63,558 bases of DNA from Gemmatimonadales bacterium (GTDB taxonomy: Bacteria > Gemmatimonadota > Gemmatimonadetes > Gemmatimonadales > GWC2-71-9): contig JBDSIR010000107.1 in the NCBI GenBank assembly GCA_039917855.1, forward strand, positions 1 through 63,558, written 5' to 3'. Positions 1-43,934 of the stretch are shown one piece after another. Each line of letters starts with the position of its first letter. Positions within the stretch are counted from its first letter, which is position 1. A program made the position numbers and the translations under genes. The notes under the pieces were generated by a model, which was not told the origin of the DNA, did not search any database, and was given only the letters and a program-made list of their open reading frames with translations.

Positions 1-120
1 CCGCCCGTCCGCCCATCCGCCCGTCCGCCCATCCGCCCATCCGCCCGTCCGCCCGTCTGCCCGTCTGCCCGTCGCCCGTCGCCCGTCGCCCGTCCGCCCG
101 CCTACCCGCCCACCCGCCTG
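1..120. repeat. Short-tandem-repeat array of degenerate 7-8 nt units (CCGCCCGT / CCGCCCAT / CTGCCCGT / CGCCCGT)
   Basis: Read directly: an uninterrupted run of more than 12 units from the window edge to ~120. The last units encode the final residues (..RRRVGG) and the TAG stop (102-104, minus strand) of the adjacent CDS. Confidence 0.85.
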
Positions 121-1160
121 CGTTCCACCACATTCACCACTTGTTCCGCGAAGGTGCCCGGATCGAACGGCAGCTGTACTGCCAGGTCGCAGTGCCGCCC
201 GAGCTTCCCGCCCGCCCCAGGTACCGCGATCACGACCAGACTCCAGGCGCGGGATCCGTCCGGCACGCTCACGCCCAGGGGATCGGCTTCGGCGCTCGGG
301 ATGCCGGCGACGACGACGACACTGGGGACCGGCGCTCCGGTGAGGCGGGAGGCCACTTCCTCGAGTGACTCCAGCGACTCCGGTTCGAATCCGACGCGCC
401 GGAGGAGCACCGACACCACCCGGCGGAGCGAGACGTCCTCCGCGGCGACCAAGGCGCACCCGCGCGCCCCACGCATCACAGTGGGCCCGTCCAGGTCGGC
501 CATCTTGACCGAGCCCGCGAGGTAGTCGGTGTTGCGCGCCCCGTCCGCTTCGCCGGCCCGCTTCACGACCTCCTTGATCCGCTCGAGTGATGCCCGGATC
601 ACGGCGAGTCCCGCGTGGAGGGTCGGCGACAGCCCGGGCTCTTCTTGCAACAGGCTCGACTCGGTGAGGGCGGCCATCAGCGGGTTGTTGAGCTCGTGGT
701 GCAGCGCCACGGTCATCTCCCCGACGGCGGAGCGTCGTTCCGCCTGCACGACCTCGCGCTCGGTACTCTCGAGGGTGTCACGGAGCGCGATCGTCCGCCG
801 CACCCGTTCCACCACCGTGGGCAGGAGATCGATGAACCGGGCGTCCTTGGAGACGTAGTCATCGGCGCCGAGGCGGAGCGCTTCGACCGCGATGGCCTCG
901 GCACCGTGCCCCGTGACGATGATCACGGCGGGGCGCATCGAGCGCTCGCGGAGCTTTCGCAGGACGTCAAGGCCGTTCCCGTCGGGGAGCTGGACGTCGA
1001 GGAGGACCAGGTCGTGTTCCGGGGCGAGCGCCAGCGCCAGGGCGGCGGTGTCGACCGTCGTCGGCGGCGCGAAGCCGTGTCCTTCGAGCGCCACCTTTGC
1101 CAGCTTGGCCTGGAGGTGGTCGTCGTCCACCAGGAGGATGCGGAACGTGCGCTTAGGCAT
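102..1160 (-). CDS. Receiver - HisKA/DHp - pseudo-receiver protein lacking an ATPase (CA) domain
   Basis: ORF 102-1229(-). Start set to ATG 1158-1160 (MPKRTFRILLVDDD), which overlaps the TAA stop of the upstream GT2 gene by 8 nt. REC signature present (LLVDDD, LVLLDVQLPDGNG, IIVTGHG, DYVSKD), followed by H-box ALHHELNNPLMAAL. A REC-like segment follows (CALVAAED..SVVVVAGIPS..SLVVIAVPG) without an acceptor Asp. No N/G1/G2 ATP-binding boxes seen. Confidence 0.8.
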   Translation of the reverse strand: MPKRTFRILLVDDDHLQAKLAKVALEGHGFAPPTTVDTAALALALAPEHDLVLLDVQLPDGNGLDVLRKLRERSMRPAVIIVTGHGAEAIAVEALRLGADDYVSKDARFIDLLPTVVERVRRTIALRDTLESTEREVVQAERRSAVGEMTVALHHELNNPLMAALTESSLLQEEPGLSPTLHAGLAVIRASLERIKEVVKRAGEADGARNTDYLAGSVKMADLDGPTVMRGARGCALVAAEDVSLRRVVSVLLRRVGFEPESLESLEEVASRLTGAPVPSVVVVAGIPSAEADPLGVSVPDGSRAWSLVVIAVPGAGGKLGRHCDLAVQLPFDPGTFAEQVVNVVERRRVGG

Positions 1161-2721
1161 CGGCGTGCTCCCCGGTCTGGAAGCCGATCCGCGCGAACTT
1201 CTCCCACCCGCTCTTGCCGCGCCACGCATCGAACTGGCCCCGGAGACGCCACCAGAGGCTCAGCGGCCGCCACACGAACGGTTCGAGCACGGCGTAGGCG
1301 AGCATCAACCCGATGTCGCGCGGCCGCACATACGGGAGCAGGCTCCGCTGCAGCCGGTCGGCGAGCCCGTACTGGAAGCGCCAGGCGCCGACGACGACCG
1401 CGAGGAGGTTCACGAACACGGCATACGCGCTCGAGACCAGGAAGAAGGCCAGGAAGTACTGCCCCGAGATGACCGGCCGCCCGCTCAAGTGCCCCAGCAG
1501 GAACCCGAAGAGGACGAACAGGTATCCCAGCAACTCATAGATGGGGCCATAGTACTCGAATAGCCAGAATGCAGGGAGGGCGACGCTGCCGATGCGTCCG
1601 AACCGGGGGCGGAAGAGCATGCCCCGATGGTAGAGCAGGCTCTCCCGGAGACCGCGATGCCAGCGGCCACGCTGTTTGCGGAGGGAGTCGAGGCTCTCGG
1701 GCACCTCCGTCCACGCCACCGGGTGCGGGAGGAATCCCACTCGGCGCTTGATCCCCTTGTCGCGGCAATAGCGGTGCAGCCGGACGACGACCTCCATGTC
1801 CTCGCAGACGGTGTCGGTCTCGAGCCCGACGTATTCCGCCACGAGACGGGAATCGAGGAACCGCGTCAGGTAGCCGCCGGCGCGGATCAGGAGCTCCTTG
1901 TCGAACACCGCGAAGACCCCCGACAGGATCAGCACGCAGCCCAGGCGGTCGAGGCCGGTGCGGCCGGTGGTGAAGGAGCGGAGGTATTCGATCATCTGGA
2001 ACCGCGCGGCGTCGTTCTTCGGGAGCCCGATGCTCACCACTTTGCCGTTGCGCACGGCGCAGCCGTTGGCGATGGCCACCTGCCCCCCGAGCGCCATGAG
2101 TCGGGGATCCTCCTGCAACGCCCGCATCATCTCCTTGAGCGCCCGTTGGTCGAGGATCGAGTCGGCGTCGAGCGAGACGACGTACGGACAGTTCGAGGCG
2201 TTGGTGCCCGCGTTGAGCGCGTCGGCCTTCCCGCCGTTCGCCTTGTCCAGCACCACGAGGCGGATCACCTGCTTGGGCAGGGGGACGGTGGCCTCGTACA
2301 TCGCATTCACGCGCGCGGTCTGCAGGGCAGGACGGTACGGCAGGTCGGTGCGGCGGAGGTGGAACGCTTTTTGGAGCACCTCGAGGGTACGATCCTTCGA
2401 CCCGTCGTTGACCACCACCACCTCCAGCCGGGGATAATCCGACTGGAGCAGGTTGGTCACGCTGTCGACGATGGTCACTTCCTCGTTGTAGGCCGGCACG
2501 ATCATCGTGAGCGGCTTGGTGGCGAGGGCGTCGTCGATGAGATCGAGGTCGGCGGTGAAGTGCGCGCCGACGAAGCGCCGGATCGCGTGCCATGACAGCG
2601 CGATCAGCGTGATGTTCCAGGTGTTGTAGGCGAAGAGGTAGATCAGGAACAGCGGCTGCAGGACGATCCCGAGAGTGGCCATCGCGGTGGCTGACCAGAC
2701 GATCGCCGCGTTCGTGGTCAC
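1153..2721 (-). CDS. Processive family-2 glycosyltransferase (polysaccharide synthase, PgaC/BcsA/NodC-like), multi-pass membrane protein
   Basis: ORF 1153-2721(-). GTG start lies within a GTGA overlap with the HEAT gene stop. Hydrophobic helices at the N-terminus and several at the C-terminus. GT2 motifs VVNDGSKD, SLDADS, CEDME and QRGRWHRG (QxxRW). Confidence 0.85.
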   Translation of the reverse strand: MTTNAAIVWSATAMATLGIVLQPLFLIYLFAYNTWNITLIALSWHAIRRFVGAHFTADLDLIDDALATKPLTMIVPAYNEEVTIVDSVTNLLQSDYPRLEVVVVNDGSKDRTLEVLQKAFHLRRTDLPYRPALQTARVNAMYEATVPLPKQVIRLVVLDKANGGKADALNAGTNASNCPYVVSLDADSILDQRALKEMMRALQEDPRLMALGGQVAIANGCAVRNGKVVSIGLPKNDAARFQMIEYLRSFTTGRTGLDRLGCVLILSGVFAVFDKELLIRAGGYLTRFLDSRLVAEYVGLETDTVCEDMEVVVRLHRYCRDKGIKRRVGFLPHPVAWTEVPESLDSLRKQRGRWHRGLRESLLYHRGMLFRPRFGRIGSVALPAFWLFEYYGPIYELLGYLFVLFGFLLGHLSGRPVISGQYFLAFFLVSSAYAVFVNLLAVVVGAWRFQYGLADRLQRSLLPYVRPRDIGLMLAYAVLEPFVWRPLSLWWRLRGQFDAWRGKSGWEKFARIGFQTGEHADA

Positions 2722-5700
2722 CGCGATCCCTCGAGCAGGGACGGATCCAGGAAGATCGCGACGCTCTGTCGGATCTCGGGGGAGGGATCCTTCTGTGCCA
2801 CCAGCCGGCCCGCCGCGGGGTCGAGGAGTGCGAGCACCAGCGCCATCGCGCGCCGGCGGATCGGATCGGGTTCGGTCTGGACGCCGAGGCGGAGCGTGTC
2901 GATGGCCACGAGTTCGCTCGCGGCCGCGGCCGCCATGTCGCGCGAGACGCGGGCGGGGAGCCGTTCGGCCTCGCCCCTGAGCAGGAGTCCCACCGCCGCG
3001 GCCGCGCGCACGCTCTCGTCAGGGTCCTTGATCAGGGTGCTGAGCGCCGGCGCGGGACCGATCAGATTGGCGAGCGCGCGGGCCACGGTGAGCCGCACCT
3101 GCGGGTCGGGGTCGCTGGCGAGGCGCGCCAGCCCATCGCCCTTTCGCACAACCGCCCAGGCGCGCCCCGCCGCGCGGCGCACAGTCACCACCGGGTCGAG
3201 GCTCAGTCGGTCGAGCGTCGGCAGGTCCACCAGGTCGGGCCGGAGCGACCAGAGTTCCGCCACCGCCTCGCGCACTTCGGGCGCCGGACTCGCGGCGATC
3301 GGCAGGAGTACCCGCGCGATCTTGGGATGGTGAATGAAGCGAGCCACCTTCACCACCATCACCCCCTCGGCCCCGTCGAGCGCGAGGCCGAGCGTGAGGT
3401 CGAGGAAGACGTCGAACGCAGCCTCAGCCTGAGCCGCCACCCCCTGGAGCACCGCCGGATCGTCGTCCGCGCGCAGGAGGCGAATAAGATTCGGCAGCGC
3501 CACCGCCGTGGGGAGGCGACGGAAGAGCTGGACGGCGGTGCGCCGGACGGCTGGATGCGGGTCGCCCAGCGCCCGCTTCCCCACATCGAGCAGCTCATCT
3601 CGATCGAGCAGGTCCGCCACCGCCGCGAGGGCAGCAGCGCGCACTTCGGGGGCCGGGTCGCCTCGCACGATCTGGAGCAGCGCCCCCCGGCTCTTCTCGC
3701 CGCGGAACGACCGGAGGCCCGCCACCAGCCGGCGGCGTCCGTCCGCATCGAGCATGGAGCGCACCCCATCGGCCAGCGCCGCCTCCATTCCCGTGAGCGA
3801 TTCGGCGGCGAGGGCCCGGAGTTCGGCCTGCCGGGTATCACGCAGCTTGAGACTCACCGCACGATAGAACGGGTCGGTCGAGAGGTGGGCCCGGAGATGC
3901 GCGCGCACGGCGTGCTCGTCGGCCATCTCGATCACTCGCGCCACGATGCTCTCCTCCTCGTACAGGCCGAGCGCGAGCGCCGCCGCAGCGCGCACCCCCA
4001 CCGGCTGATCGGCGTGACAGGCGGCCAGGAGCACCGCTTCTCCCCCCGGCGCTCCCAGTAACCCGACACCGAGGGCGGCACGCTCGCGCACCTCGGCATC
4101 GGGATCGGTGTCGAGGAGGCGCACGAGGTCGGGAGCGATGGCGGTGTTCTTGACCTGGGTAAGCCCCTCGATGGCCGCTCGGCGCACCGCTGGATCGGGA
4201 TCGACCAGCCCCTGCGTCAGGAGCGCGGCCACCGGGTCACCACCCAGGCGCGCCAGCGCCTCGGCCACCGCGGCGCGGACCGCAGGGTCGGGGTCCCGCC
4301 ACATCAGGGCGAGGAATCGGTCGGCGTTCCGCACCCGCGCGGCGAGGATCGCGCGCACCACCGTCAGCTTCCGTTCGCTGTCGTTGGATTCGAGGACCCG
4401 GTCGAGCAGGTCGGCGATCCGGTCAGGATCGAGTCGCGCCACCGCTTCAGTGGCGCTGAGCCGGATGTCGAGCTCGGGCGCCATCGCCAGGCGGATGAGC
4501 GTGGGCACCGAACTCGGATTACCGACCCGTCCCAGCGCCCGGGCCGCGGCCAGTCGCACCGCGGGCTCACTGTCGCCCAGCATCCGGACGAGGGTCGGGG
4601 CCGCATCGTTCCATCCGCCGTCCGCCGCCGCTCCGGCCGCCGCCGCGCGTACTTCGCTCGCGGGATCTCCGGCGAGCCGTTCGAACGCCTCCTCCACACC
4701 GGTCGCGCGAACGAGCCCGAGCGCCTTGGCAACCCCCGCCCGCACCCGCGCGCTCGGGTCGTCCAGCCGCTGGACCACCGCCGCGGTGAGGTCGGCCGAC
4801 CCGAGGTCACCGATGAGGGCGAGCGCTTCAGCCCGCACGTGCTCGTCGGCGTCGCCCAGGGCATCGACTGCGGCGGGAAGGGAACTGCGGGCCGAAAGGG
4901 CGCGCAACGCCTCCAGCGCGGCGGTGCGCACCGTCGCGTCGGCATCGCGCCGGGCGGTGAGGGCAAGGTCGGGCTCGAGCTCCCGGCGGCCGGCCCGGCG
5001 CGCGGCGTGGACCACCGCCACCCGTACCGCGGGCGACGCGTGGTCGAGCTGCTCGGCGAGCATCTCCTTGGCCCCCGCCACCGCGAAGCGGACCAGGATC
5101 TCCTCCGCGTCGACCGGTGGGGTCCCGGCGGCGATCTGCGCGATGAGCCGGGCCGGCACGCCGAGCCGTTCGAGCGAGACGGCCGCGCGGATCCGGATCT
5201 CCGGATCGATGTCGTCGAGTGCCACGAGGAGCGGTCGCTCGGCGCGGGTGCCGATCTGTTCGAGGGCCTCGACGCTCCGCATCCGGACCCACCATGCCGG
5301 GTCGCCGAGGGAGCGGACCAGACTCTCGACCACCTCGTCACCGGGGAACTGACCGAGTGCGCCGGCGATGCGGGCGCGCACGAACGGGATCGGGTCGGTG
5401 AGGAGGCGGTCGAGCAGGTGGCGCACTGCCCGGGTGTCGCCGAGGCGGCCGAGTGCCCCGGCCGACTTGGCGCGGACCTCGTCGTCGAGGTCGTTCAGCG
5501 ACTTGAGCAACACCGGGTAGGCGCGGGGTGCCTTCACTTCGCCCAGCACCGCTGCCGCCCATGCGCGCGCGGGATGTCTCGTCTCCTCATTGAGGAACGC
5601 GACCATCGGATCGGTGACGAGGTCACCATGACGCCCCAGGATGTCCGCGATGCGGGGTACGAGCCATACTTCGGCCTTCTTGAGGGCCTCGATCAGCGGG

Positions 5701-6215
5701 CCGACCGCCACCGGGTCGGCGATGCGTGCGAGGGCGCGCAGGGCGATCTCGCGGACGTCGCCGTCCTCGGTGGTGGTGGACTGGATCGTCTCGAGCAGGG
5801 GAGGGACGGCGCGCGCGTTGCCGACGCGGCCCAGGAGTTCCGCCGCGAAGGCGCGGTCACGCCAGCGGCGCCCCTCGCGAAGCCGCTTGATGTACTTGTC
5901 GACCAGGCCGAGCCGGTCGTAGGCATCGAGGAGCCAGGCGGGACGTTGTTCGGTGGCGCGTGCCTGTTCTTCGAGGACAGCTTCGAGGGCCTCGAAATCG
6001 TGCAGCGTACCGGGAGTCCGGAGCACCGGCTCGAGCCGGTCCTGGTCGCGGGCGGCGAGCCCCGCCACGAACTCCCGGTAGAGCCCCTTCCGCTCCGCCA
6101 GACGACGTTCGACCCGGACCAGCCACCACGACATCGCGAACCAGGCCATGACGAAGAGCGCACTGGCCGTGGCCAGGAACGCGGTCAGGGCCAGGATGAC
6201 GTCGAGACCGCTCAC
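2718..6215 (-). CDS. Membrane-anchored giant HEAT/PBS-lyase-like repeat protein (1165 aa)
   Basis: ORF 2718-6215(-). GTG start lies within a GTGA overlap with the CheY-like gene stop. N-terminal hydrophobic anchor VILALTAFLATASALFVMAWFAMSWWLV is followed by a basic stretch, RVERRLAERK. The rest is more than 25 (by eye) tandem ~30-aa units of the form DPxxxVRxAAxxALG. Confidence 0.85.
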   Translation of the reverse strand: MSGLDVILALTAFLATASALFVMAWFAMSWWLVRVERRLAERKGLYREFVAGLAARDQDRLEPVLRTPGTLHDFEALEAVLEEQARATEQRPAWLLDAYDRLGLVDKYIKRLREGRRWRDRAFAAELLGRVGNARAVPPLLETIQSTTTEDGDVREIALRALARIADPVAVGPLIEALKKAEVWLVPRIADILGRHGDLVTDPMVAFLNEETRHPARAWAAAVLGEVKAPRAYPVLLKSLNDLDDEVRAKSAGALGRLGDTRAVRHLLDRLLTDPIPFVRARIAGALGQFPGDEVVESLVRSLGDPAWWVRMRSVEALEQIGTRAERPLLVALDDIDPEIRIRAAVSLERLGVPARLIAQIAAGTPPVDAEEILVRFAVAGAKEMLAEQLDHASPAVRVAVVHAARRAGRRELEPDLALTARRDADATVRTAALEALRALSARSSLPAAVDALGDADEHVRAEALALIGDLGSADLTAAVVQRLDDPSARVRAGVAKALGLVRATGVEEAFERLAGDPASEVRAAAAGAAADGGWNDAAPTLVRMLGDSEPAVRLAAARALGRVGNPSSVPTLIRLAMAPELDIRLSATEAVARLDPDRIADLLDRVLESNDSERKLTVVRAILAARVRNADRFLALMWRDPDPAVRAAVAEALARLGGDPVAALLTQGLVDPDPAVRRAAIEGLTQVKNTAIAPDLVRLLDTDPDAEVRERAALGVGLLGAPGGEAVLLAACHADQPVGVRAAAALALGLYEEESIVARVIEMADEHAVRAHLRAHLSTDPFYRAVSLKLRDTRQAELRALAAESLTGMEAALADGVRSMLDADGRRRLVAGLRSFRGEKSRGALLQIVRGDPAPEVRAAALAAVADLLDRDELLDVGKRALGDPHPAVRRTAVQLFRRLPTAVALPNLIRLLRADDDPAVLQGVAAQAEAAFDVFLDLTLGLALDGAEGVMVVKVARFIHHPKIARVLLPIAASPAPEVREAVAELWSLRPDLVDLPTLDRLSLDPVVTVRRAAGRAWAVVRKGDGLARLASDPDPQVRLTVARALANLIGPAPALSTLIKDPDESVRAAAAVGLLLRGEAERLPARVSRDMAAAAASELVAIDTLRLGVQTEPDPIRRRAMALVLALLDPAAGRLVAQKDPSPEIRQSVAIFLDPSLLEGSR

Positions 6216-6583
6216 GTGCCGCCGATGCGCTCGGCGATGGTGTCGAGCAGCAGCGGGATATCGACCGGCTTGTGCAGGAAAACATCCGCGCCCACTTCTT
6301 CGGCCCAGAACTGGTCGGCCGGCTGATCCTTCGAGGTGAGCATCACGATGGGGAGCTTGGCAGTCTCCGGATTCTGCCGGAGGGCGCGACAGGTCTGGTA
6401 TCCATTCATTTTCGGCATCATCACGTCGAGCAGGATCAGGGCCGGCCGCACCGCGGCCACCGCGGCGATCCCGGCCTCGCCATCGGCGGCAGTGAGCACG
6501 CGATAGCCTGCGCCGGTGAGGACGCGTTCCAGAAGCTTTCGCTGGTCCAGGTCGTCCTCGATGACCAGGATGAGCTGGCTCAT
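6212..6583 (-). CDS. Single-domain CheY-like response regulator receiver
   Basis: ORF 6212-6583(-), 123 aa. Motifs: ILVIEDD, LILLDVMMPKMNG, IVMLTSKD, ADVFLHKP. No output domain. Confidence 0.9.
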   Translation of the reverse strand: MSQLILVIEDDLDQRKLLERVLTGAGYRVLTAADGEAGIAAVAAVRPALILLDVMMPKMNGYQTCRALRQNPETAKLPIVMLTSKDQPADQFWAEEVGADVFLHKPVDIPLLLDTIAERIGGT

Positions 6584-6693
6584 GTGCTGGACCCCGGGCG
6601 GTCAGAAAAGTGGGGACTCGCCACGCCGAAAGGTGCCGCTCTTGCGTCCTGCCAAGCGACCCTCGCGAACTACAAGGATAGTCGGGTGGGCGC

Positions 6694-6716
6694 GGGGACC
6701 TGATCCTCCGGTCCCC
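6694..6716 (-). terminator. Hairpin immediately 3' of the HD-GYP gene (possible intrinsic terminator without a U-tract)
   Basis: GGGGACC-tgatcctcc-GGTCCCC, a 7-bp perfect stem 7 nt downstream of the stop at 6723. No T-run follows, so termination is uncertain. Confidence 0.35.
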
Positions 6717-6722
6717 GTTGGG

Positions 6723-7787
6723 TCAGGCGGGGGCTTCGTCCAGGAAGACCAGTACCCGACGGCGGTTGACCACCGTATTCAGCGCGGCGAGGACCCGGGG
6801 GTCGAGCACCCGGCCCGCCAACTGACCCATCCGGGAGGCGGCCTGGTCGGGGGTCATCTTTTCCTGGTAGGGTCGTGCAGTGGTGAGCGCGTCGTAGATC
6901 TCGGCCGCGCAGAGGACCCGGGCGCCGAGCGGGATGGCCTCACCGGAGAGGCCGTCGGGATAACCGTGGCCATCCCATTGCTCGTGGTGGTGCCGCACGA
7001 AGGGGATCACGTCGCCCAGGTGAGCCAGCGGTGCGAGGATCTGGGAACCGATGGTGACGTGCGCTTTGACGTGGGCGTACTCCTCCGCCGTAAGGGGGCC
7101 CGCCTTGTTCAGGATCGTTTCGTGGATCCCGATCTTGCCGATGTCGTGCAGGCGGCCGGCGGCGCGGATCGTCTCGACCTCCTCGTCGCTTCCTCCCATC
7201 TCGGCCGAGACCAGCGCTGCCAGGTCGGCCACCCGGGCGGAGTGGCCCCGGCTGTACGAGTCCTTGGCCTCGAGGGCATTGACCAGCGCCTCGAGGGTGG
7301 CGATGCTGAGCCGCTCGAGCTTGGCACGCTCCCGCCGCGCCTCGATGCTCCGGGCCGCGACCTCTTCCTTGAGCCAGTGCTGCATCTTCTGCTCTTCGAG
7401 CATCTGATCGCGCTTGCGGAGCGCGTTCCGGATGGCGCGGTCGAGGTCGGCGAGATCGATCGGCTTGGTGAGGTAGTCGACCGCACCGCGCTGCAGGCAG
7501 AGCGAGGCGGTGGTGGCGTCGTTGACCGCCGTGAGCATCACGATCGCGAGGTCGCCATCGACCCCGAGGAGATCTGGCACGGTGTCGACCCCGCTCTTGT
7601 CCGGCATCCGGACGTCGAGGAGGACCGCCGATATCCGGTGCGCCCGCACCGCGGTCATCGCTTCCGCGGCGCTCCCCGCTCCATAGACCGTGTATCCCTT
7701 TTGCGTGAGGTAACGGCTGAGCGCGCTTCGGAGGGCGTCCTCATCATCGACGACGAGCAGGGAGATCGTGGTGGTAGGGTCGGACAC
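6723..7787 (-). CDS. Response regulator with HD-GYP domain (RpfG-like c-di-GMP phosphodiesterase)
   Basis: ORF 6723-7787(-). REC motifs LLVVDDED and VLLDVRMPDKSG. HD-GYP motifs HSARVA, RLHDIGKIGI and HHHEQWDGHGYPDGL. Confidence 0.9.
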   Translation of the reverse strand: MSDPTTTISLLVVDDEDALRSALSRYLTQKGYTVYGAGSAAEAMTAVRAHRISAVLLDVRMPDKSGVDTVPDLLGVDGDLAIVMLTAVNDATTASLCLQRGAVDYLTKPIDLADLDRAIRNALRKRDQMLEEQKMQHWLKEEVAARSIEARRERAKLERLSIATLEALVNALEAKDSYSRGHSARVADLAALVSAEMGGSDEEVETIRAAGRLHDIGKIGIHETILNKAGPLTAEEYAHVKAHVTIGSQILAPLAHLGDVIPFVRHHHEQWDGHGYPDGLSGEAIPLGARVLCAAEIYDALTTARPYQEKMTPDQAASRMGQLAGRVLDPRVLAALNTVVNRRRVLVFLDEAPA

Positions 7788-7940
7788 GGGGTGCCGCCAG
7801 CGGGGAGAGGGGGACGCGGGAAGGTACGGCTGACGGCGCCGGGTGGCTAGCGGTGGGGCGCGGGCTCAGGGTGATCCCCGTTACCCGGCCGCGCCCTCCC
7901 TCGCCAAGCGGGCGCAGGGAGCGCATAATTCAGGGTTCCC

Positions 7941-9551
7941 ATGACCACCCTTACCGCTCCTATCCTTCGCGCCCGGTGGGCGAGCCTGGTCGTCCTCACG
8001 CTCGCTGCCTGGGCGTGCGCCGCGCCTGCGGACGGGAGCCAGGAATACCGGGTCATCCTGCAGACGGACGCCTCGCTGGTCTACCGAGGCGATGGGATAA
8101 GCGCCTATGCCGCCCTCTATCACATCGTCGGAAGCGACACGACGCCGGTCCCCAACGCGGTGCTGGTCTGGTCGGGTGGCGGCGGCAACGTGGAGATCGA
8201 CCCCCAGCCCAACGGCTACGCCAACATCTTCGGGATCAGGCGCGGGACGGCCTACATCTACGTCGAAGCACCGGCCTACGGCGGCGGGACCGGGGCCGGG
8301 GCCGCGATCCGGGTGGCCGACCAGGTCGAGCTCGACACCGTTCTCCCCGACACTGTGGCGTGGGGAGGACGGCTCACCCTCCATGGCATCCGCGTCGGCA
8401 ATCCCAACGACGTCTCGGTCCGTCTCAACGGCGTGACCCTCATCCCGGATACCCTCTCGCTCGTCGGCGATGTCGATCAGGTCCAGTCGATGAGTTACTT
8501 CGTACCGGGCGGGACCACTTCGGGGATCCTCCAGCTCACCGGGTTCGGGTTGATCACCTCGGACAGCACCCCGATCACCGTGCTTCCCTACGAGCTGTAT
8601 GAGCCGAACGACCTGACCCCGACGGTGGTCCAGCTCGATACCGCCCAGCCGTACCCGCCGGTCGCCGATCCGCCGACCACCGGCCATCCCGAGGTCCACT
8701 TCTTCAATCCGGTGCTCCTCTATGAAGCGCCGGGTGTCACCGACTCGATCACCACCGACTGGTTCCATTTCGTCTCCGCCGCCGCCTCGGCGCAGCCCTG
8801 GACCTTCGTCTACCGCTCGCCGGCCATCCCGCGGCGGGGCGCGTTCGGGGTCCCCGCCACCATGCAGGCCGGGGTCCCGATCTTCAATGCCGGGGCTTTC
8901 GGGTTCGACTTCGACGCCCACCGGCTCCTCTCCCGATGCCGCGGGTCAGACTTCGAATTCGCAGTCTCGGGCTCGGTGGACTCGATCACGCTCTCGCTCC
9001 AGACCCTCCCCGCGAGCGGTATCGACTTCGTCGAGTACTCGTCGAATGCCGGGACGTACGGTCTCGCGGTCTACGCGGGCTACCGCGCGCCGGCGGGTCT
9101 GGCACTCGGGCCCGACAAGTTCGAGGACAACGACTTCTGTGAACAGGCCGACGCGAACTTCGCGATCAACAGCCTCAAGATCGACCTCGGGGTCGCCGGG
9201 TTCAGCGATACACTGACCATCGACACCCCGTTCGAGGTGGACTGGTATCGCTTCCACGTGGCGACCAATGGCAGGGTCGACCTGGCGACGGCGGGCCGGA
9301 ACGGATTCGCCAATGCCGCGCTGGACCTCTATCTGTATGGCCAGTCGGACCTCCGTCTGATCACCTCGGCCACCGGCGGGTCGACCGCCGACCAGCAGCT
9401 TTCACGAGTGCTCAATACGGGCGATTACTACCTCGTGGTGGTGAACACCGATGGCCAGCCGACCCGGTATGGGCTCTGTGTCGCCGAGGGGACACCCTGC
9501 ACCCAGCCCCCGGACCCCACCCGCGCGGCCCGAGCGGCCGGTCATCGATGA
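7941..9551 (+). CDS. Secreted protein with Ig-like region and two pre-peptidase C-terminal (PPC)-like domains
   Basis: ORF 7941-9551(+). Signal peptide (..LVVLTLAAWACAAP). Two PPC-like starts, YEPNDLTP..DWFHFVS and FEDNDFCEQA..DWYRFHV. Stop overlaps the kinase start (ATGA). Confidence 0.75.
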   Translation: MTTLTAPILRARWASLVVLTLAAWACAAPADGSQEYRVILQTDASLVYRGDGISAYAALYHIVGSDTTPVPNAVLVWSGGGGNVEIDPQPNGYANIFGIRRGTAYIYVEAPAYGGGTGAGAAIRVADQVELDTVLPDTVAWGGRLTLHGIRVGNPNDVSVRLNGVTLIPDTLSLVGDVDQVQSMSYFVPGGTTSGILQLTGFGLITSDSTPITVLPYELYEPNDLTPTVVQLDTAQPYPPVADPPTTGHPEVHFFNPVLLYEAPGVTDSITTDWFHFVSAAASAQPWTFVYRSPAIPRRGAFGVPATMQAGVPIFNAGAFGFDFDAHRLLSRCRGSDFEFAVSGSVDSITLSLQTLPASGIDFVEYSSNAGTYGLAVYAGYRAPAGLALGPDKFEDNDFCEQADANFAINSLKIDLGVAGFSDTLTIDTPFEVDWYRFHVATNGRVDLATAGRNGFANAALDLYLYGQSDLRLITSATGGSTADQQLSRVLNTGDYYLVVVNTDGQPTRYGLCVAEGTPCTQPPDPTRAARAAGHR

Positions 9552-11071
9552 CGGCCCCGGCGATCGAGTGTACCCATTGCCTTACCCCGGTCCCTTCGGG
9601 CACCCGGTATTGCCTGATCTGCGGCAACGATGTCTCGCAGCCTGGGGGTCCCCCACCGACCCGAAGCGCCATCGACGAGCTTCGGGAGCGGCTGGCGGAG
9701 GTGCTTTATGGTCGCTATCAGATCCGGCGCACCCTCGGCGTGGGGGGGATGGGGGCGGTGTTCCTGGCCGAGGAGATCGGTCTCGAGCGCGAAGTGGCCA
9801 TCAAGGTCCTCCCTCCCAAGCTGGCGGAGGATCCCGGCGTCGTCATCCGCTTTGAGCGGGAGGCCAGGACGGCGGCGCGTCTGGACCATACGCACATCAT
9901 CCCGATCTACCGGGTCGAGAGCGAAGGGGGCCTCCACTACTTCGTGATGAAGTACGTGGCCGGACGTCCGCTCGACGCCCTCATCGCCGCGCGCGGGCCG
10001 CTCCCGGTGGCCCAGGCGGTCCGGATACTCTCCGAGGCCTCCACCGCGCTCGAGCACGCCCATCGGAAGGGCGTCGTCCACCGCGACATCAAGCCCGCCA
10101 ACATCCTGCTCGACGAGGATGACCACATATTGCTCGCCGACTTCGGCATCGCGAAGGCGGTGGCCGCGGCGGCGGAGCTGACCAACACCGGTGTCGTGAT
10201 CGGGACCCCGTACTACATGTCGCCCGAGCAGGCGCTCGGCATCGCGGTCGATGGCCGGAGCGACCAGTATTCGCTCGCCGTGGTCGGGTATCGGATGCTC
10301 ACCGGCGAAGCGCTCTTCGACGCTGACTCGTCGATGGCGATCCTCTACAAGCACATCCACCAGCCCCCCCCGCGGCTCAGGGACCGCCGCCCCGATGTGC
10401 CCGAGCACATCGAACGGGCCACCCTCCGCGCCCTCGCGAAGTCGCCGGCGGACCGGTTCGAGTCGATGGCGGCATTCACGCGTGCCATCCGTGGAGAGGA
10501 GTCGGTCACACTTGTCGAGGAGAGCGCCGCGCGTGTGGCCGCGGCGCAGGAACGTATGCTCACCGGCGCCGACACGCTTTCCCTTGAGGTCACTCCCATC
10601 CCGGGGTCGCGGCGGCGCACTTCGCGGTTGGCAGTGTTGGGCCTCGTTGCCATCGCGGCGGGGGGACTCTGGTGGAGGGAGCGGCCCCGACCGGCGGCGA
10701 CCACCCAGCTTCCCGTGGCCGACACCACCGCCCGTGCGTCCCCTGCGGTCACTCCGCTTCGGGACAGCTCCACCGCACCGGGCCAGGTGCCGCCGACGAA
10801 GCCCGCGCCGAAGCGGAGCAGCGCGCGTGACCTCACCGTGGCACCTCCACCATTCACCAGCGCTCCGCTGACGGTGAATGCGATGCCATTCGGAACCCTG
10901 TTCGTGGATGACGCTCGCGTCGGCGGGACCCCGGTGGTGAACTTCCCGCTCACTCGGGGCGTTCACACCATTCGGGTGGAGCGAGAAGGGTGCAAGGCGA
11001 AGGAGGAGCGGATCAGTGTGACCACGCCCGCGTTGATCAAGCGCCAGTACACCCTGGAGTGCACGCCGTGA
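9548..11071 (+). CDS. Ser/Thr protein kinase with N-terminal zinc ribbon, one TM helix and C-terminal PEGA-like domain
   Basis: ORF 9548-11071(+). Zinc ribbon CTHCLTPVPSGTRYCLICG. Kinase motifs VAIKVL, HRDIKPANILL, DFGIA, GTPYYMSPEQ. TM helix LAVLGLVAIAAGGLWW. PEGA-like tail PFGTLFVDDARVGGTPVVNFPLTRGVHTIRVEREG. Confidence 0.9.
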   Translation: MTAPAIECTHCLTPVPSGTRYCLICGNDVSQPGGPPPTRSAIDELRERLAEVLYGRYQIRRTLGVGGMGAVFLAEEIGLEREVAIKVLPPKLAEDPGVVIRFEREARTAARLDHTHIIPIYRVESEGGLHYFVMKYVAGRPLDALIAARGPLPVAQAVRILSEASTALEHAHRKGVVHRDIKPANILLDEDDHILLADFGIAKAVAAAAELTNTGVVIGTPYYMSPEQALGIAVDGRSDQYSLAVVGYRMLTGEALFDADSSMAILYKHIHQPPPRLRDRRPDVPEHIERATLRALAKSPADRFESMAAFTRAIRGEESVTLVEESAARVAAAQERMLTGADTLSLEVTPIPGSRRRTSRLAVLGLVAIAAGGLWWRERPRPAATTQLPVADTTARASPAVTPLRDSSTAPGQVPPTKPAPKRSSARDLTVAPPPFTSAPLTVNAMPFGTLFVDDARVGGTPVVNFPLTRGVHTIRVEREGCKAKEERISVTTPALIKRQYTLECTP

Positions 11072-12093
11072 AGCGGGTGGTGTTGCTCTCGGCGTTCATC
11101 GTCCTCGCCGCCCCCGTTGGAGCGCAGTCGAACGCCACGCTCAAGCGGGCCCTCGACGCGGGGGCATCGCTCGAATACCCGACCGCGCTCCGGCTCGCCC
11201 GGCGGGCGATCCAGGAGCGCCTCACCGCGCCGGACCTCCGCTTGGCCTACCAGTTGCTCGGCACGACTTACGCGGCGATGGACAGCGGCACCCAGGCGCA
11301 GGGCGCCTTCCGGCAGCTGATCCTCCTCGATCCCGAATTCGAGTTCGACGCCAGCAATATCTCGCCGAAGATCACCGCGCAGTACGGTCTCGCGCTGGCC
11401 CAGCTCTTGGTGGTCCGGCACCTTGGCACCGACAGCGCGTCGACCTCCTTCGTGGCGGGGCGGTCGCTGATGTCGTTCCGCTTCGTCCTCTCGCAGCGCG
11501 CCCGTGTCGTCACGCGCCTGGTGGGGACGGGCGGCACCGCGTTGCTGGACTCCTCGGTGGCCGATCCTGGCACGGTCCGGGTGACGTGGAATGGCCTCCT
11601 CGCCGGTGGCGTGGCACCGACGGCGGGACGCTATCGGATGACGGTCCAGGCGACCTCGACGGGGGATCGGTTCTCCACCGAGCTTCCGCTCGTGATCGCC
11701 GTGGCGCCGGTCGATACGGCGCCCCACCTGATCCACCTCGAGGGGTACGACCCCCTGCCCGAGATGGTCACGCCACCGCGCAGCTTCCGTCCGCTCGGGA
11801 TCGCGGCCCTTCTGACCGGGCTCGTGGCCGGGGGGTCATTGGCCGCGGAGAACGGCGCGATCGGACACGTGGCTCGGCGCGAGGTCGTGATCGGCGCCAG
11901 CGCGACGCTCCTGGTGGGGCTCGTCGCGAGCTTCGGGCATCCGGTCCAAGTTCCGTCCACGGCGAACATCCGGTACAACCAGCTGGTCCGGGACCAGTTG
12001 ACGCGACAGAACCAGCAGATCTCGACGGCCAATCTGGTGCGGCGCCAGGAGGTCGAGCTCACGGTGACGCCCGCCCCGGCGGTGGCGCCGTGA
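11068..12093 (+). CDS. Exported protein with TPR-like N-terminal part, FlgD-Ig-like domain and C-terminal TM helices
   Basis: Frame of ORF 10990-12093. Start set to GTG 11068 (VKRVVLLSAFIVLAAPVGAQ, signal peptide) within a GTGA overlap with the kinase stop. FlgD-Ig-like segment TVRVTWNGLLAGGVAPTAGRYRMTVQATS. Two hydrophobic helices near residues 250-300. Confidence 0.7.
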   Translation: MKRVVLLSAFIVLAAPVGAQSNATLKRALDAGASLEYPTALRLARRAIQERLTAPDLRLAYQLLGTTYAAMDSGTQAQGAFRQLILLDPEFEFDASNISPKITAQYGLALAQLLVVRHLGTDSASTSFVAGRSLMSFRFVLSQRARVVTRLVGTGGTALLDSSVADPGTVRVTWNGLLAGGVAPTAGRYRMTVQATSTGDRFSTELPLVIAVAPVDTAPHLIHLEGYDPLPEMVTPPRSFRPLGIAALLTGLVAGGSLAAENGAIGHVARREVVIGASATLLVGLVASFGHPVQVPSTANIRYNQLVRDQLTRQNQQISTANLVRRQEVELTVTPAPAVAP

Positions 12094-12758: not shown

Positions 12759-13622
12759 TCAGGCCCGTTCGGTCCCCTCCGGTCCCTCGAAGTCCACCGC
12801 CACCTTATTCGGGATGATCCCCGCAGCCGCCGCGCGATCGAGCACCAACTGGACCGCCTGGCGGCCCCGCGCGCCATACTCGACGGTCCACTGGTTCACG
12901 TACATCCCGACGAAGGCGTCGGTGCGTTCCTCGCCGATGCCGCGATTGAATCGCTCGGCGTGCGCCAGCGCCGCCTTCCGGTGCTCGAGCGCGTACACCA
13001 CGCTCGCCTTGAGGTCGCGCGCCACCTGGCGCACCACCGTGGGGCCGAGGTCGCGGCGCACCACGTTGCCGCCGAGCGGGAGCGGGAACCCGGTGTCGTC
13101 GAGCCACCATGCGCCCAGGTCGGCCCAGAGATGGAATCCGTCGTCGCCGTAGGTGAGCTGGCCTTCGTGGATCACCAGCGCCACATCGGCGTCGCCACGA
13201 GAGACCGCATCCTGCACCTGGTCGAACGGAACGACCACCTCGCGCACGTCGGGTTGATAGAGCTTGAGCGCGAGATAGGCGGTCGTGAGCTTCCCAGGCA
13301 CCGCGACCCGGAGTCCCTTGAGCGCCGCTCGCGGATCGGCCGGCTTGGGCGAGAGCGCCACCAGGCGCGGTCCGTAGCCATCGCCCATCGAGGAGCCGCT
13401 CGACAGGAAGGCGTAGCGGTCCGCGAGGTAGGCGTACGCGTGTACCGACACCGCGGTCACCTCGAGCTCCGCCCTGAGGGCGCGCTCGTTGAGCGACTGG
13501 ATGTCCTGCAGTTCGTGGACATAGCGCAGGTCGCCGGTGTCGATCTTCCCCTCGGCGAGCGCATAGAACATGAACGCGTCGTCGGAATCAGGGCTGTGGG
13601 CGACCGTGATCGTTCGCGTCAT
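12759..13622 (-). CDS. MqnA/MqnD/SBP-family protein (futalosine-type menaquinone biosynthesis-like)
   Basis: ORF 12759-13622(-). The N-terminus ITVAHSPDSDDAFMFYALAEGKIDTG.. is typical of this family as I recall it. The exact step (MqnD versus a relative) cannot be assigned. Confidence 0.65.
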   Translation of the reverse strand: MTRTITVAHSPDSDDAFMFYALAEGKIDTGDLRYVHELQDIQSLNERALRAELEVTAVSVHAYAYLADRYAFLSSGSSMGDGYGPRLVALSPKPADPRAALKGLRVAVPGKLTTAYLALKLYQPDVREVVVPFDQVQDAVSRGDADVALVIHEGQLTYGDDGFHLWADLGAWWLDDTGFPLPLGGNVVRRDLGPTVVRQVARDLKASVVYALEHRKAALAHAERFNRGIGEERTDAFVGMYVNQWTVEYGARGRQAVQLVLDRAAAAGIIPNKVAVDFEGPEGTERA

Positions 13623-18633: not shown

Positions 18634-19098
18634 CTACTTGCGCAGTATCTCGAACAGCCGCACCACGAAGCCGCTGGCGTCGTCGTAGATCCCCGGCACC
18701 GTGCTCTCGCGTGGGCCGGCGAGGTTGAGCGTCTTCACGTGGTGGGCGCGAGCCCAGCGGGCCACGACCCGCGCGTCAGGTGGGTTGCGAAGGTCGATGA
18801 CGAGATGGGGTTTGCCGTGTTTGCGGGCGAGCTCGATGGTGAGCTTGGTCCCTCCCTCGGCTTCTCCCTTGGTGAGGATCACCGTGCCGTCGGCGTCGCG
18901 CACGTTCCACTCGGTGCGGACCACGTAGTCGGTGGAGGGGGCTTCGTAGAGCGGGTAGCGGGCGGCGATGGGGCCGTCCTCGGCGAGGCGCCCGCGAGGG
19001 CACCAGCCGCCGCAGGGGATGCCGAGGACGAGGGCGACATCGAGGGCGGCGCGGTCGACGCCGGTCTGGCCGCCGGAGATGATTCGGGTGATCGGCAC
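18634..19098 (-). CDS. YpsA / putative molybdenum-carrier-like SLOG-fold protein
   Basis: ORF 18634-19098(-). The N-terminus IISGGQTGVDRAALDVALVLGIPCGGWCPRGRLAEDG matches my recollection of the MoCo-carrier/YpsA SLOG family signature. Confidence 0.75.
   Translation of the reverse strand: MPITRIISGGQTGVDRAALDVALVLGIPCGGWCPRGRLAEDGPIAARYPLYEAPSTDYVVRTEWNVRDADGTVILTKGEAEGGTKLTIELARKHGKPHLVIDLRNPPDARVVARWARAHHVKTLNLAGPRESTVPGIYDDASGFVVRLFEILRK

Positions 19099-40250: not shown

Positions 40251-40258
<8 letters not shown>
40141..40258. repeat. STR-armed palindrome (GAGTCTAGA-type units) enclosing a terminator hairpin
   Basis: GAGTTGAGAGTCTAGAGTCTAGAGTG at 40141-40166, versus CAACTCTAAACTCTCAACTCCAGACTCTAGACTC at 40225-40258. 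The right arm contains the TAG stop and last codons of the kgd-like gene. Confidence 0.8.
40182..40219 (+). terminator. Rho-independent terminator after the HNH gene
   Basis: AGAGCCCC-loop-GGGGCTCT, followed by GAGCTTTTT (T-run at 40215-40219). Confidence 0.6.

Positions 40259-43934
<3,676 letters not shown>

Follow-up and report, generated by a model that had tools for sequence, protein, structure and literature searches.

The window analysed here, a 63,558-nucleotide stretch of DNA from a Gemmatimonadales bacterium, opens with a cassette in which a family-2 glycosyltransferase (GT2) gene lies among genes for phospho-signalling proteins and a large HEAT-repeat protein. This raises the question of how such a synthase might be controlled. 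A sequence-only reading had proposed an uncharacterized exopolysaccharide system, in which a processive GT2 is coupled to the HEAT protein and gated by phosphorylation.

The five-gene cassette and its synthase

An ORF check of the cassette recovered five intact genes, all on the minus strand and with a GC3 of 0.85-0.92 in each. Their features are:

6723-7787, minus strand: REC-HD-GYP response regulator, 354 aa (Pfam Response_reg 1.5e-24, HD_5 3e-37)
about 6693-6717, minus strand: G+C-rich hairpin with an 8-bp stem (fold of the intergenic spacer)
6212-6583, minus strand: single-domain CheY/PleD-type receiver, 123 aa (Pfam Response_reg 2.9e-26)
2718-6215, minus strand: TM-anchored HEAT protein, 1165 aa (Pfam HEAT_2 E 1e-105, 13 stretches)
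5226-6215, minus strand: predicted conserved HEAT core, aa 1-330 (short-HEAT profile alignment, hydropathy)
2718-5225, minus strand: predicted lineage-specific HEAT extension, aa 331-1165 (partial profile matches, Pfam HEAT_2)
1153-2721, minus strand: GT2 synthase, 522 aa (Pfam Glycos_transf_2, Glyco_tranf_2_3, Chitin_synth_2)
102-1160, minus strand: REC-DHp protein, 352 aa (Pfam Response_reg 1.3e-23, HisKA 1e-6)

The gene set, coordinates and start/stop overlaps described in the sequence-only reading were thus borne out by the ORFs, the Pfam searches and the sequence itself: the receiver stop overlaps the HEAT start in the GTGA at 6212-6215, the HEAT stop overlaps the GT2 start in the GTGA at 2718-2721, and ATGCCTAA at 1153-1160 forms an 8-nt overlap between the GT2 stop and the REC-DHp start. 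The most upstream ATG of the REC-DHp gene, at 1229, would yield a 375-aa product; we favour the start at 1160 because the homologue in the Gemmatimonadales locus L001 is called at 349 aa and has a short overlap. The hairpin previously noted between the HD-GYP and receiver genes was also seen, within a 139-nt spacer and directly 3' of the HD-GYP stop. It has no U-tract, a simple terminator scan makes no call there, and the fold of the spacer is not unusual (z = -0.84, not significant); a role as terminator or attenuator is possible. When the cassette and its flanks were scanned with Pfam, no domain of the PilZ, PgaA/B/D, BcsB/C, Pel or Wza/Wzc kinds turned up, in agreement with the earlier view that the known synthase partner modules are absent.

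The GT2 displays the motifs D106 (VVNDGS), D185/D187 (DAD), E307/D308 (CEDME) and Q350/R351/R353/W354 (QRGRW), whose residues are invariant in family alignments of 25 and 48 sequences. Its AF2 model (pLDDT 85.9, pTM 0.87) comprises one long TM helix at the N-terminus, a GT-A domain, the QRGRW interface helix and four C-terminal helices, and Foldseek ranks hyaluronan, chitin and cellulose synthases as its best matches (probability 1.0, E down to 8.5e-15, TM about 0.5). Judged by this model, the protein belongs to the processive membrane-synthase fold class, as its motifs had originally suggested. It nevertheless failed the tests for membership of the PgaC, BcsA, NodC and NfrB families, scoring far below the respective NCBIfam cut-offs for PgaC_IcaA (121 bits against 422), CelA (48 against 699) and NodC (37 against 550). 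On an HMM of its own clade the window GT2 scores 726 bits and full-length members at least 450, as against 116 for PgaC, 20 for BcsA and 6 for NfrB.

The REC-HEAT-GT2 trio

The five-gene order recurs in the Gemmatimonadales loci L001-L004 and L065, where GT2 identity is about 70%, indicating that the cassette is more than a chance assembly. Beyond this order, a HEAT gene was present in the cluster at all 62 testable species-level loci of the GT2 clade, spanning more than 12 bacterial phyla, and at 61 of these it was directly upstream of the GT2 or fused to it; none of 10 out-group GT2 loci had one. The pair is also found in Mesorhizobium and Deinococcus, and two haloarchaeal plasmids carry annotated trios of response regulator, HEAT and GT2 genes separated by short overlaps or 1-nt gaps. 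The arrangement is therefore conserved well beyond the genome in which it was noticed. On these gene-neighborhood comparisons the core is the REC-HEAT-GT2 trio, with the receiver as its first gene, and the window cassette is an enlarged form of a widespread family. The identification of this core is our main new result. The GT2 scores far below the NCBIfam cut-offs, and we found no functional study of the REC-HEAT-GT2 family in the full-text literature; hence the family is apparently unstudied, and the earlier description of the system as uncharacterized holds.

The large partner of the synthase had been described as a 1165-aa solenoid. Its HEAT repeats are confirmed, as is an N-terminal TM anchor (aa about 5-33) followed by the positively charged stretch RVERRLAERK (hydropathy), but only about 330 aa of it are conserved. 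Residues 6-327 are colinear with positions 5-321 (152 bits) of a profile with 348 positions, derived from 30 short HEAT partners of the GT2 clade, which are about 350-420 aa long and share their repeats with the window core. Residues 331-1165 match only the repeat portion of this profile, in 7 partial hits; they hold about 25 further PBS-lyase-type HEAT repeats, and the solved sequences nearest to them are alphaRep and PBS-HEAT designs. By sequence comparison, then, the window protein combines a conserved core of about 330 aa with a lineage-specific extension of about 830 aa.

Natural fusions bear directly on the relationship between the two proteins. Clostridia and Petrotoga encode TM-HEAT-TM-TM-GT2 proteins of about 1000 aa, and in the model of such a fusion two TM helices lie between the HEAT and GT domains, which places both on the cytoplasmic side of the membrane. 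The fusions, a fusion-model pTM of 0.85 (pLDDT 86) that is the sole measure of the interface, and the presence of HEAT at 62/62 loci strongly imply the HEAT-GT2 interaction that the sequence-only reading had put forward; a stoichiometric complex and its gating remain proposals. HEAT and GT2 distance matrices are also correlated (r = 0.58; 0/2000 permutations as high in a Mantel test). Neighboring genes often overlap slightly in high-GC bacteria, and the neighborhood could in principle be a coincidence of unrelated genes in a compact genome. This reading is refuted by the fusions and by the contrast between clade and out-group loci, and the correlated distances also speak against it.

Phosphorylation, c-di-GMP and competing explanations

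On balance we lean towards a synthase-dependent polysaccharide system in which the HEAT protein relays the state of a phosphorylated receiver to the synthase. As predicted from sequence and models, the GT2 would build a polymer from a nucleotide-sugar donor, most likely of the UDP-HexNAc type, and pass the chain through its own TM channel, with a single-pass, cytoplasm-facing HEAT protein as its obligate partner. The upstream receiver, phosphorylated by a kinase encoded elsewhere, would dock on the HEAT solenoid and turn the synthase on, so that HEAT would assume the role that PilZ, PgaD or MshEN plays with c-di-GMP in known synthases. The product is probably a secreted polysaccharide whose synthesis would be turned on by phosphorylation and not by c-di-GMP alone. 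The best NCBIfam match of the window receiver is the first receiver of PleD, and D10/D11, D53, T83 and K105 are retained in 24/24 aligned module-associated receivers, one of them archaeal. These intact phospho-acceptor residues argue for phospho-signalling, as do phosphorelay components encoded beside the trio: Mesorhizobium has an Hpt protein and a kinase there, and Haloarcula has PAS and GAF kinases. Two observations count against a phospho-receiver mechanism: no surface motif of the HEAT core is strongly invariant, and a receiver was found near only 36 of 66 clade loci, a lower bound since the search used a single sequence and some contigs are truncated.

Two of the genes had no counterpart in the core. 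The REC-HD-GYP gene, which also directly precedes the cassette in L001-L004 and L065, is a Gemmatimonadales-specific addition whose translation has intact HD and GYP motifs (RLHDIGK, HHEQWDGHGYP); its product is predicted to be a phosphorylation-controlled c-di-GMP phosphodiesterase, which would tie the same phosphorelay to local c-di-GMP degradation. The REC-DHp gene is kept downstream of the GT2 in the same loci. Of the REC-DHp-pseudoREC architecture assigned to its product, Pfam supports a canonical receiver and a HisKA dimerization/phospho-His domain with HHELNNP; the pseudoREC was not confirmed, as the C-terminal domain of about 120 aa has no Pfam match and its REC-like similarity, over beta1-alpha1, is weak (i-E 0.03). 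No HATPase_c or other ATPase domain was detected by Pfam, and the protein is predicted to be a His-phosphotransfer or phosphatase node that would shuttle phosphate to the cassette receivers or strip it from them. We propose that the HEAT extension would serve as a docking platform for such extra regulators.

GGDEF neighbors in several lineages and the HD-GYP protein here mean that c-di-GMP could be the proximate ligand. It might be the real allosteric activator, with HEAT or the HEAT-GT2 interface as a new receptor resembling PgaC-PgaD, and with receivers only setting local c-di-GMP through HD-GYP here and REC-GGDEF elsewhere. We regard this as unlikely, even though the cassette conserves an intact REC-HD-GYP, intact PleD-like REC-REC-GGEEF genes stand directly upstream of HEAT-GT2 in L009, L021 and L042, and every characterized synthase-dependent system known to us (Bcs, Pga, Alg, Pel, Nfr, Pss) is gated by c-di-GMP. 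Haloarchaea and Bacteroidota largely lack c-di-GMP signalling, yet at the Bacteroidota loci and the two annotated haloarchaeal loci the receiver stands as a bare single domain, and the one GGDEF detected close to a Bacteroidota trio is on the opposite strand (L036). Moreover, GGDEF domains beside the fused forms lack the GG(D/E)EF motif, those of Clostridia being degenerate, and HEAT and GT2 revealed no PilZ, no MshEN and no conserved motif resembling an I-site. Somewhat less probable still is that HEAT is a structural or assembly scaffold for localization, oligomerization or recruitment of sugar-nucleotide or modifying enzymes, with receivers acting at another level, for instance on transcription by way of partners elsewhere. 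Solenoids of HEAT repeats serve generically as protein-protein scaffolds, and in this family they range from 300 to more than 1200 aa and evolve fast (mean identity 15% against 38% for GT2). However, a single-domain receiver lacks a DNA-binding output and has to bind a protein instead; from archaea to bacteria the receiver gene lies immediately upstream of HEAT, often overlapping it by a few nucleotides, and in Clostridia and Petrotoga the gene that overlaps the fused HEAT-GT2 gene encodes a protein with the receiver as its C-terminal domain.

The nature of the product invites a further alternative, namely that the GT2 makes a short oligosaccharide signal, periplasmic glucan or glycolipid in the manner of NodC or OpgH. 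Substrate and product are not readable from sequence, the single N-terminal TM helix recalls NodC, and the window encodes no outer-membrane exporter, so that export across this membrane must rely on a component encoded outside the window. The earlier account, in which the known partner modules are missing, needs amending for other diderm versions: their operons include an outer-membrane partner, a TPR + YaiO barrel, along with an LtaS/BcsG-like sulfatase-family modifier that is fused to the GT2 in some relatives. These operons, the full-length matches to hyaluronan synthase (HAS), chitin synthase and BcsA that include the channel-forming helices and the QxxRW helix, and the NodC score (37 bits against 550) make this alternative rather improbable.

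Relationship to characterized systems

Among the characterized GT2s tested, the closest is PgaC of E. coli pgaABCD (24.6% identity over 321 aa, E 3e-22), and PgaC_IcaA is likewise the best NCBIfam model, albeit far under its cut-off. PgaC resembles the window protein in being a membrane GT2 of comparable size that depends on a small membrane-anchored partner and is controlled post-translationally; PgaC-PgaD and IcaA-IcaD are thus the nearest parallels. Here, in contrast, the partner is a cytoplasmic HEAT solenoid instead of the two-TM PgaD, both the PgaB deacetylase and the PgaA porin are lacking, and the regulator conserved alongside in the family is a phospho-receiver rather than c-di-GMP alone. 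HAS, chitin synthase and BcsA have in common with the window GT2 the GT-A domain, QxxRW interface helix, TM channel and the D, DxD, ED and QxxRW motifs, at a sequence identity of only 13-17%; unlike BcsA, it has neither a PilZ domain nor a BcsB partner. NfrB of the E. coli NfrB-NfrA-YbcH and DgcJ system, annotated as a 'cyclic di-3',5'-guanylate-activated glycosyltransferase', is also a GT2 synthase with a dedicated signalling enzyme and local c-di-GMP control, and its outer-membrane partner NfrA is annotated as an 'exopolysaccharide secretion system outer membrane protein'. NfrB senses c-di-GMP through a C-terminal MshEN domain, which is absent from the window GT2.

For the proposed phospho-receiver switch there are precedents. 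In Myxococcus xanthus the phosphorylated single-domain regulator EpsW binds the polysaccharide-initiating enzyme EpsZ and activates it post-translationally (PMC12802240); EpsZ, however, is a phosphoglycosyl transferase of a Wzx/Wzy pathway rather than a GT2 synthase, no HEAT adaptor is involved, and the window receiver is sub-threshold on the EpsW model (64 bits against 200). Receiver docking on a PBS-type HEAT solenoid finds a precedent in OE2401F of Halobacterium salinarum taxis, a PBS-lyase-type HEAT protein that is required for signal output and has CheY and other Che proteins as interaction partners (PMC2666748), although it is soluble, acts on the archaellum switch and has no glycosyltransferase link. 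The only literature trace of the HEAT-GT2 family that we found is a pair of uncharacterized genes in C. perfringens NELoc-2, CP4_0467 and CP4_0468, likened here by their published listing alone: a 377-aa 'heat repeat' protein, with no receiver listed beside the pair, is directly followed by a 466-aa membrane family-2 glycosyl transferase, 'chitin synthase', and sizes and order fit the short form.

The five-gene cassette and its genomic setting

The cassette comprises five intact minus-strand genes, all with a strong third-position G+C bias (0.85-0.92) in a window whose G+C content is 67-73%:

6723-7787, minus strand: REC-HD-GYP protein, 354 aa, with Response_reg and HD_5 domains
6212-6583, minus strand: single-domain REC protein, 123 aa
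2718-6215, minus strand: HEAT protein, 1165 aa, with an N-terminal hydrophobic helix and HEAT repeats over the remainder
1153-2721, minus strand: GT2 glycosyltransferase, 522 aa
102-1160, minus strand: REC-HisKA (REC-DHp) protein, 352 aa

The three overlaps on which the sequence-only reading based its picture of tightly linked genes can all be read in the DNA, namely GTGA at 6212-6215 and again at 2718-2721 (4 nt each, between the REC and HEAT genes and the HEAT and GT2 genes respectively) and ATGCCTAA at 1153-1160. That reading had also placed a hairpin between the HD-GYP gene and the next; an 8-bp G+C stem is indeed present 3' of the HD-GYP stop codon at ~6693-6717, but it lacks a U-tract, does not qualify as a canonical intrinsic terminator and has a statistically ordinary fold. 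An Rfam scan of positions 1-9000 returned zero matches, and hence no c-di-GMP riboswitch. Between the stop codon of the last cassette gene and the edge of the window (1-100) the 8-nt unit CCGCCCGT is repeated in tandem 12.9 times with 91% matches, forming an array that may extend past the window.

Conservation of the gene order in related genomes, on which the earlier proposal had been made to depend, was recovered within Gemmatimonadales, whose MAGs also supply the closest named proteins: the same five genes occur in the same order in loci L001-L003, which lie on independent contigs and encode GT2s with 70% identity to that of the window, and the genome collection, sampled at species level, contributes two further loci with this order (L004 and L065). 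The flanks of the cassette vary, a menaquinone-biosynthesis gene abutting it in L001-L003, and as the order is conserved while the flanks change the five genes travel as a unit. In the window the menaquinone gene (VitK2_biosynth) is at 12759-13622, and the three plus-strand genes that separate it from the cassette (7941-12093), coding for a secreted protein with a PPC domain, a Ser/Thr kinase that ends in a PEGA domain and a 367-aa protein without a Pfam match, are therefore a lineage-specific insertion. Two other genes of the window, both on the minus strand and unrelated to the cassette, encode a 1379-aa fusion of 2-oxoglutarate dehydrogenase E1 and E2 acyltransferase domains (40251-44390) and a circularly permuted YpsA SLOG-family protein (18634-19098).

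A clade of predicted processive synthases paired with HEAT proteins

Searched exhaustively with HMMER, a set of 1.84 billion representatives yielded 910 clusters (50% identity) at E <= 1e-30, and many of the relatives at ~40% identity were found to be proteins of 940-1010 aa in which the GT2 takes the C-terminal half and Pfam places HEAT repeats in the N-terminal half. We fetched 80 loci from the genome collection, one per species, and searched their ORFs first with the five window proteins and afterwards with a profile that was iterated from the short HEAT partners (~350-420 aa) as seeds. Clade membership was set at 450 bits or more on the A1 HMM, which separates the GT2s cleanly and on which full-length members score 450-1176 bits, the window GT2 726 and out-group GT2s 189-234, with E. 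coli PgaC at 116, YaiP at 38, BcsA at 20 and NfrB at 6. A HEAT gene is either fused to the GT2 gene or lies directly upstream on the same strand in 61 of the 62 clade loci having upstream sequence; in the 62nd, from Labilithrix (L005), it is found 1.3 kb downstream, and none was found near the out-group GT2s in any of 10 loci. The bacterial members of the clade come from Gemmatimonadota, Myxococcota, Pseudomonadota, Bacillota, Bacteroidota, Balneolaceae, Acidobacteriota, Actinomycetota, Fibrobacterota, Planctomycetota, Verrucomicrobiota, Neomarinimicrobiota, Thermotogota and Deinococcota.

The window locus shows every defining feature of the REC-HEAT-GT2 module, with a clade GT2, a TM-anchored HEAT protein encoded directly upstream and a single-domain REC immediately upstream of the latter, a layout shared with Salinirubellus, Haloarcula, Flavobacterium and others. 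In the haloarchaeon Salinirubellus the RefSeq annotation reads response regulator, HEAT repeat protein and glycosyltransferase family 2, joined by 4-nt overlaps, and in Haloarcula halophila the trio has PAS and GAF histidine kinases on its flanks. The plasmid pMESCI01 of Mesorhizobium ciceri has the order kinase, RR, RR, TPR/YaiO barrel, HEAT and GT2, with an Hpt gene alongside, and Deinococcus radiophilus the order TPR, HEAT and GT2. A same-strand receiver is encoded near at least 36 of the 66 clade loci, and the phospho-acceptor residue set is retained in all 24 aligned module receivers, including the archaeal one. Two tandem paralogous clade GT2 genes follow a single HEAT gene in Chitinophaga (L053, 9956-12918) and a Beijerinckiaceae genome (L061, 9758-12812), so that the product there may be a heteropolymer or the two synthases may form a complex.

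The motifs previously read in the window GT2 are all present (D106, D185/D187, E307/D308 and Q350-R351-x-R353-W354) and are invariant in the family alignments. Its AF2 model (pLDDT 85.9, pTM 0.87) begins with a single long helix at the N-terminus, followed by a GT-A domain, the interface helix that bears QRGRW and four more helices. Foldseek against the PDB gave as top, full-length matches the hyaluronan synthases of Chlorella virus and Xenopus, chitin synthases of fungi and oomycetes (including Chs1) and BcsA, all of them processive membrane synthases, with probability 1.0, TM ~0.5 and 13-17% identity. The interface helix and TM bundle of the model are predicted to form a channel for the polymer that is continuous with the active site.

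On every curated family model the window GT2 scores far under the cut-off, and none of the characterised synthases that it recalls provides a satisfactory assignment. Against PgaC/IcaA PNAG synthase stand a TIGR03937 score of 121 bits (cut-off 422) and the low score of PgaC itself on the clade HMM; PgaD/IcaD, PgaB/IcaB and PgaA, already taken to be missing in the sequence-only reading, went unmatched when the cassette and its flanks were scanned with Pfam, and as the genes overlap there is no space between them for an extra ORF. A BcsA cellulose synthase is likewise rejected, with the CelA model at 48 bits (versus 699), BcsA far outside the clade, and no PilZ domain on the synthase in the Pfam scan, again as had been claimed. 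The NodC chitooligosaccharide synthase model TIGR04242 gives 37 bits against a cut-off of 550, the 522-aa GT2 has no extra C-terminal domain such as the MshEN that might link it to NfrB-type synthases, and NfrB and the E. coli YaiP family both fall far below the clade threshold. PgaC is the nearest characterised enzyme by sequence among those tested (24.6% identity), and because the nearest neighbours all use UDP-HexNAc our best guess for the product is a GlcNAc-containing polymer.

HEAT and GT2 are joined in single proteins of ~1000 aa from the Clostridia (Desulfosporosinus acidiphilus, Cellulosilyticum, Desulfitobacterium and Thermoclostridium) and Petrotoga. Only same-ORF cases were accepted as fusions (loci L020, L030, L084 and L085, and the family of protein P0139); long stop-to-stop ORFs in the high-GC loci L010 and L033, which resembled fusions but have the two parts in different frames, were left uncounted. 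The model of a 1004-residue fusion (pLDDT 86.4, pTM 0.85) runs from an N-terminal TM helix through the HEAT region (62-475) and TM segments at 494-518 and 528-574 to the GT-A domain, the QxxRW interface helix and a C-terminal TM bundle; with its pTM taken as a proxy, it suggests that the HEAT and GT modules are confidently placed relative to each other. As two crossings separate them, the HEAT and catalytic domains are predicted to lie on the same side of the membrane, a topology that agrees with the cytoplasmic location earlier deduced for the window HEAT protein from the positive-inside rule (RVERRLAERK). Furthermore, pairwise distances of 51 HEAT-GT2 pairs are correlated (r = 0.58, reached in 0 of 2000 permutations), with the HEAT protein evolving much faster (mean identity 15% versus 38% for the GT2).

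Residues 6-327 of the window HEAT protein are colinear with positions 5-321 of the 348 in the short-HEAT profile (152 bits), and the remaining ~830 aa match the repeat unit only; thus, the 1165-aa protein is a conserved core to which this lineage has added a solenoid extension. In the set of fetched loci, a REC-DHp gene together with an adjacent REC-HD-GYP gene of the same direction is confined to this long-HEAT form of Gemmatimonadales, although in the actinomycete locus L067 a REC-HD-GYP gene lies on the opposite strand close to a short-form pair. The extra regulators, we infer, use the extension as their docking platform. A search of the HEAT core for an invariant ligand- or partner-binding motif revealed the generic repeat signature alone. 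The fused HEAT-GT2 family has a Cys-rich insert, CCxNCxxG...C...C (~245-285 of P0301 in alignment A3), modeled (m8b3481849d58) as a small beta unit within the HEAT solenoid that may bind zinc; the window protein lacks it.

Receiver and c-di-GMP inputs

All three receivers of the cassette possess the acidic pair, acceptor Asp, Thr and Lys: the single-domain REC has the canonical set D10/D11, D53, T83 and K105, and the motifs are equally canonical in the HD-GYP protein (VVDDED, LLDVRMP, MLTA and TKP) and the REC-DHp protein (VDDD, LLDVQLP, IVTG and SKD). The 354-aa protein has a strong HD_5 match (E 3e-37) with intact RLHDIGK and GYP (HHEQWDGHGYP) motifs, and by its sequence is a predicted HD-GYP c-di-GMP phosphodiesterase. 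In the REC-DHp protein HisKA is recovered at 29 bits with an H-box (HHELNNP), and the Pfam scan found no HATPase_c and no match in the C-terminal 147 aa; against a REC profile the last ~120 aa, where the earlier reading had placed a pseudo-receiver, gave a weak match over 28 residues only (i-E 0.034), with none in Pfam. With an H-box present and the ATPase domain absent, a histidine kinase was rejected, and the protein is most simply a predicted His-phosphotransfer or phosphatase node. A hybrid histidine kinase (HAMP-HisKA-HATPase_c-REC; 47263-49197, plus strand), whose gene is overlapped at its 3' side by that of a periplasmic-binding protein (47263-50273 for the pair, plus strand), lies 40 kb from the cassette. 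It is a candidate phosphate donor, and since hybrid kinases need a His-phosphotransfer partner, the REC-DHp protein is a candidate for that role. The Hpt protein of Mesorhizobium occupies an equivalent place and is non-homologous to REC-DHp; hence, multi-step phosphorelays into the module are a recurring theme.

These inputs allow two accounts of how the synthase is switched, and the distribution of c-di-GMP enzymes in the family bears on both. In Bacillus, Jeotgalibacillus and a MAG of the Solirubrobacteraceae, intact PleD-like REC-REC-GGEEF genes are directly upstream of HEAT-GT2, and the window HD-GYP is itself intact. The haloarchaeal trios have a bare receiver only, as do those of Bacteroidota save for an opposite-strand GGDEF gene in L036, and the GG(D/E)EF motif is absent from the proteins preceding the fused forms. 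The c-di-GMP link of the family is thus real yet non-universal, and given the bare-receiver trios and the patchy GGDEF domains we rank direct receiver-to-HEAT signaling first, as the input that is ancestral, with c-di-GMP a second layer added in particular lineages; that c-di-GMP is the proximate ligand is a less likely alternative. In Desulfosporosinus acidiphilus (L084, 5980-8004) and Petrotoga (L085, 5977-8004) the gene overlapping the fused HEAT-GT2 by 4 nt encodes a 675-aa protein made up of a Lactamase_B/ODP di-iron sensor, a GGDEF domain degenerated to QGASF and a C-terminal REC; this make-up suggests that control there may be O2- or NO-responsive.

Under receiver-to-HEAT signaling, a CheY-like receiver would, once phosphorylated, dock on the HEAT co-subunit, which would then switch the synthase on allosterically in the stead of c-di-GMP. 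We advance, as a tentative proposal that falls somewhat short of being probable, that REC-HEAT-GT2 represents a distinct and ancient class of synthase-dependent polysaccharide machinery in Bacteria and haloarchaea, in which a phospho-receiver acting on the HEAT protein replaces c-di-GMP as the direct on-switch. Its product, complex and gating are proposed from the order and fusions of the genes, the topology and fold of the proteins and their conserved residues. To our knowledge, the characterised synthase-dependent systems (cellulose, PNAG, alginate, Pel, Nfr and Listeria Pss) are all c-di-GMP-switched. This family pairs a predicted processive GT2 with a new kind of co-subunit, a cytoplasmic HEAT solenoid, and with a phospho-receiver. 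If the proposal is true, the module would be the first synthase-type polysaccharide system known to us in which two-component phosphorylation is the direct gate, and it would account for post-translational matrix control in lineages poor in or devoid of c-di-GMP signaling (Bacteroidota and archaea), with the Gemmatimonadales form joining both currencies, phosphorelay and c-di-GMP, on a 1165-aa platform. Mechanistic precedents are available in the activation by EpsW~P of EpsZ, a phosphoglycosyl transferase (PMC12802240), and the binding of CheY by a Halobacterium HEAT_PBS protein (PMC2666748).

Prior record, reach of the family and export partners

The earlier view of the cassette as an uncharacterised system is borne out both by the curated GT2 models and by a full-text literature search, with most subscription journals outside its coverage, which yielded no functional study of the module; a paper on the lipocone and one on a Bacteroidetes iron stimulon proved unrelated. 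The sole trace in the literature searched is a gene table for NELoc-2, a chromosomal island of Clostridium perfringens necrotic-enteritis strains, listing a 377-aa 'heat repeat' protein (CP4_0467) beside a 466-aa 'chitin synthase'/GT2 (CP4_0468) without functional work (PMC2879425). Judging by the annotation and lengths in the table, these are probably the same HEAT-GT2 pair, in which case the family would include a locus tied to such strains. Its range takes in soil, marine, gut and extremophile organisms, with Flavobacterium, Mesorhizobium, Priestia, Paenibacillus and haloarchaea as tractable cultured carriers, and the single-chain fusions of Clostridia and Petrotoga offer a ready-made cryo-EM target for the synthase-HEAT assembly. 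Characterization would yield one or more new polymers and a new regulatory principle for biofilm matrix, and would give function to thousands of genes annotated as 'HEAT repeat domain-containing protein' or 'glycosyltransferase family 2 protein'.

In diderm relatives the operon additionally codes for a membrane sulfatase-family (LtaS/BcsG-like) protein with TPRs and a TPR/YaiO outer-membrane barrel (Bacteroidota examples of sulfatase-TPR or TPR-YaiO proteins being L049 11247-14899, L016 2672-6208, P0193, P0342 and P0343), and some organisms have GT2 and sulfatase domain fused into one protein. Partners of this kind speak for a polymer that is exported and chemically modified, and by analogy with pEtN-cellulose hint that the polymer of the Bacteroidota operons may bear a phospho-substituent. 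Homologues of the Flavobacterium TPR-YaiO barrel and sulfatase-TPR protein were found nowhere across the 63.5-kb window. In E. coli K-12 (L091, 380069-384616) yaiO adjoins the IS2-disrupted acyltransferase gene yaiX, the GT2 gene yaiP, whose product is outside the clade, and the deacetylase-like yaiS, and has the look of a decayed polysaccharide locus.
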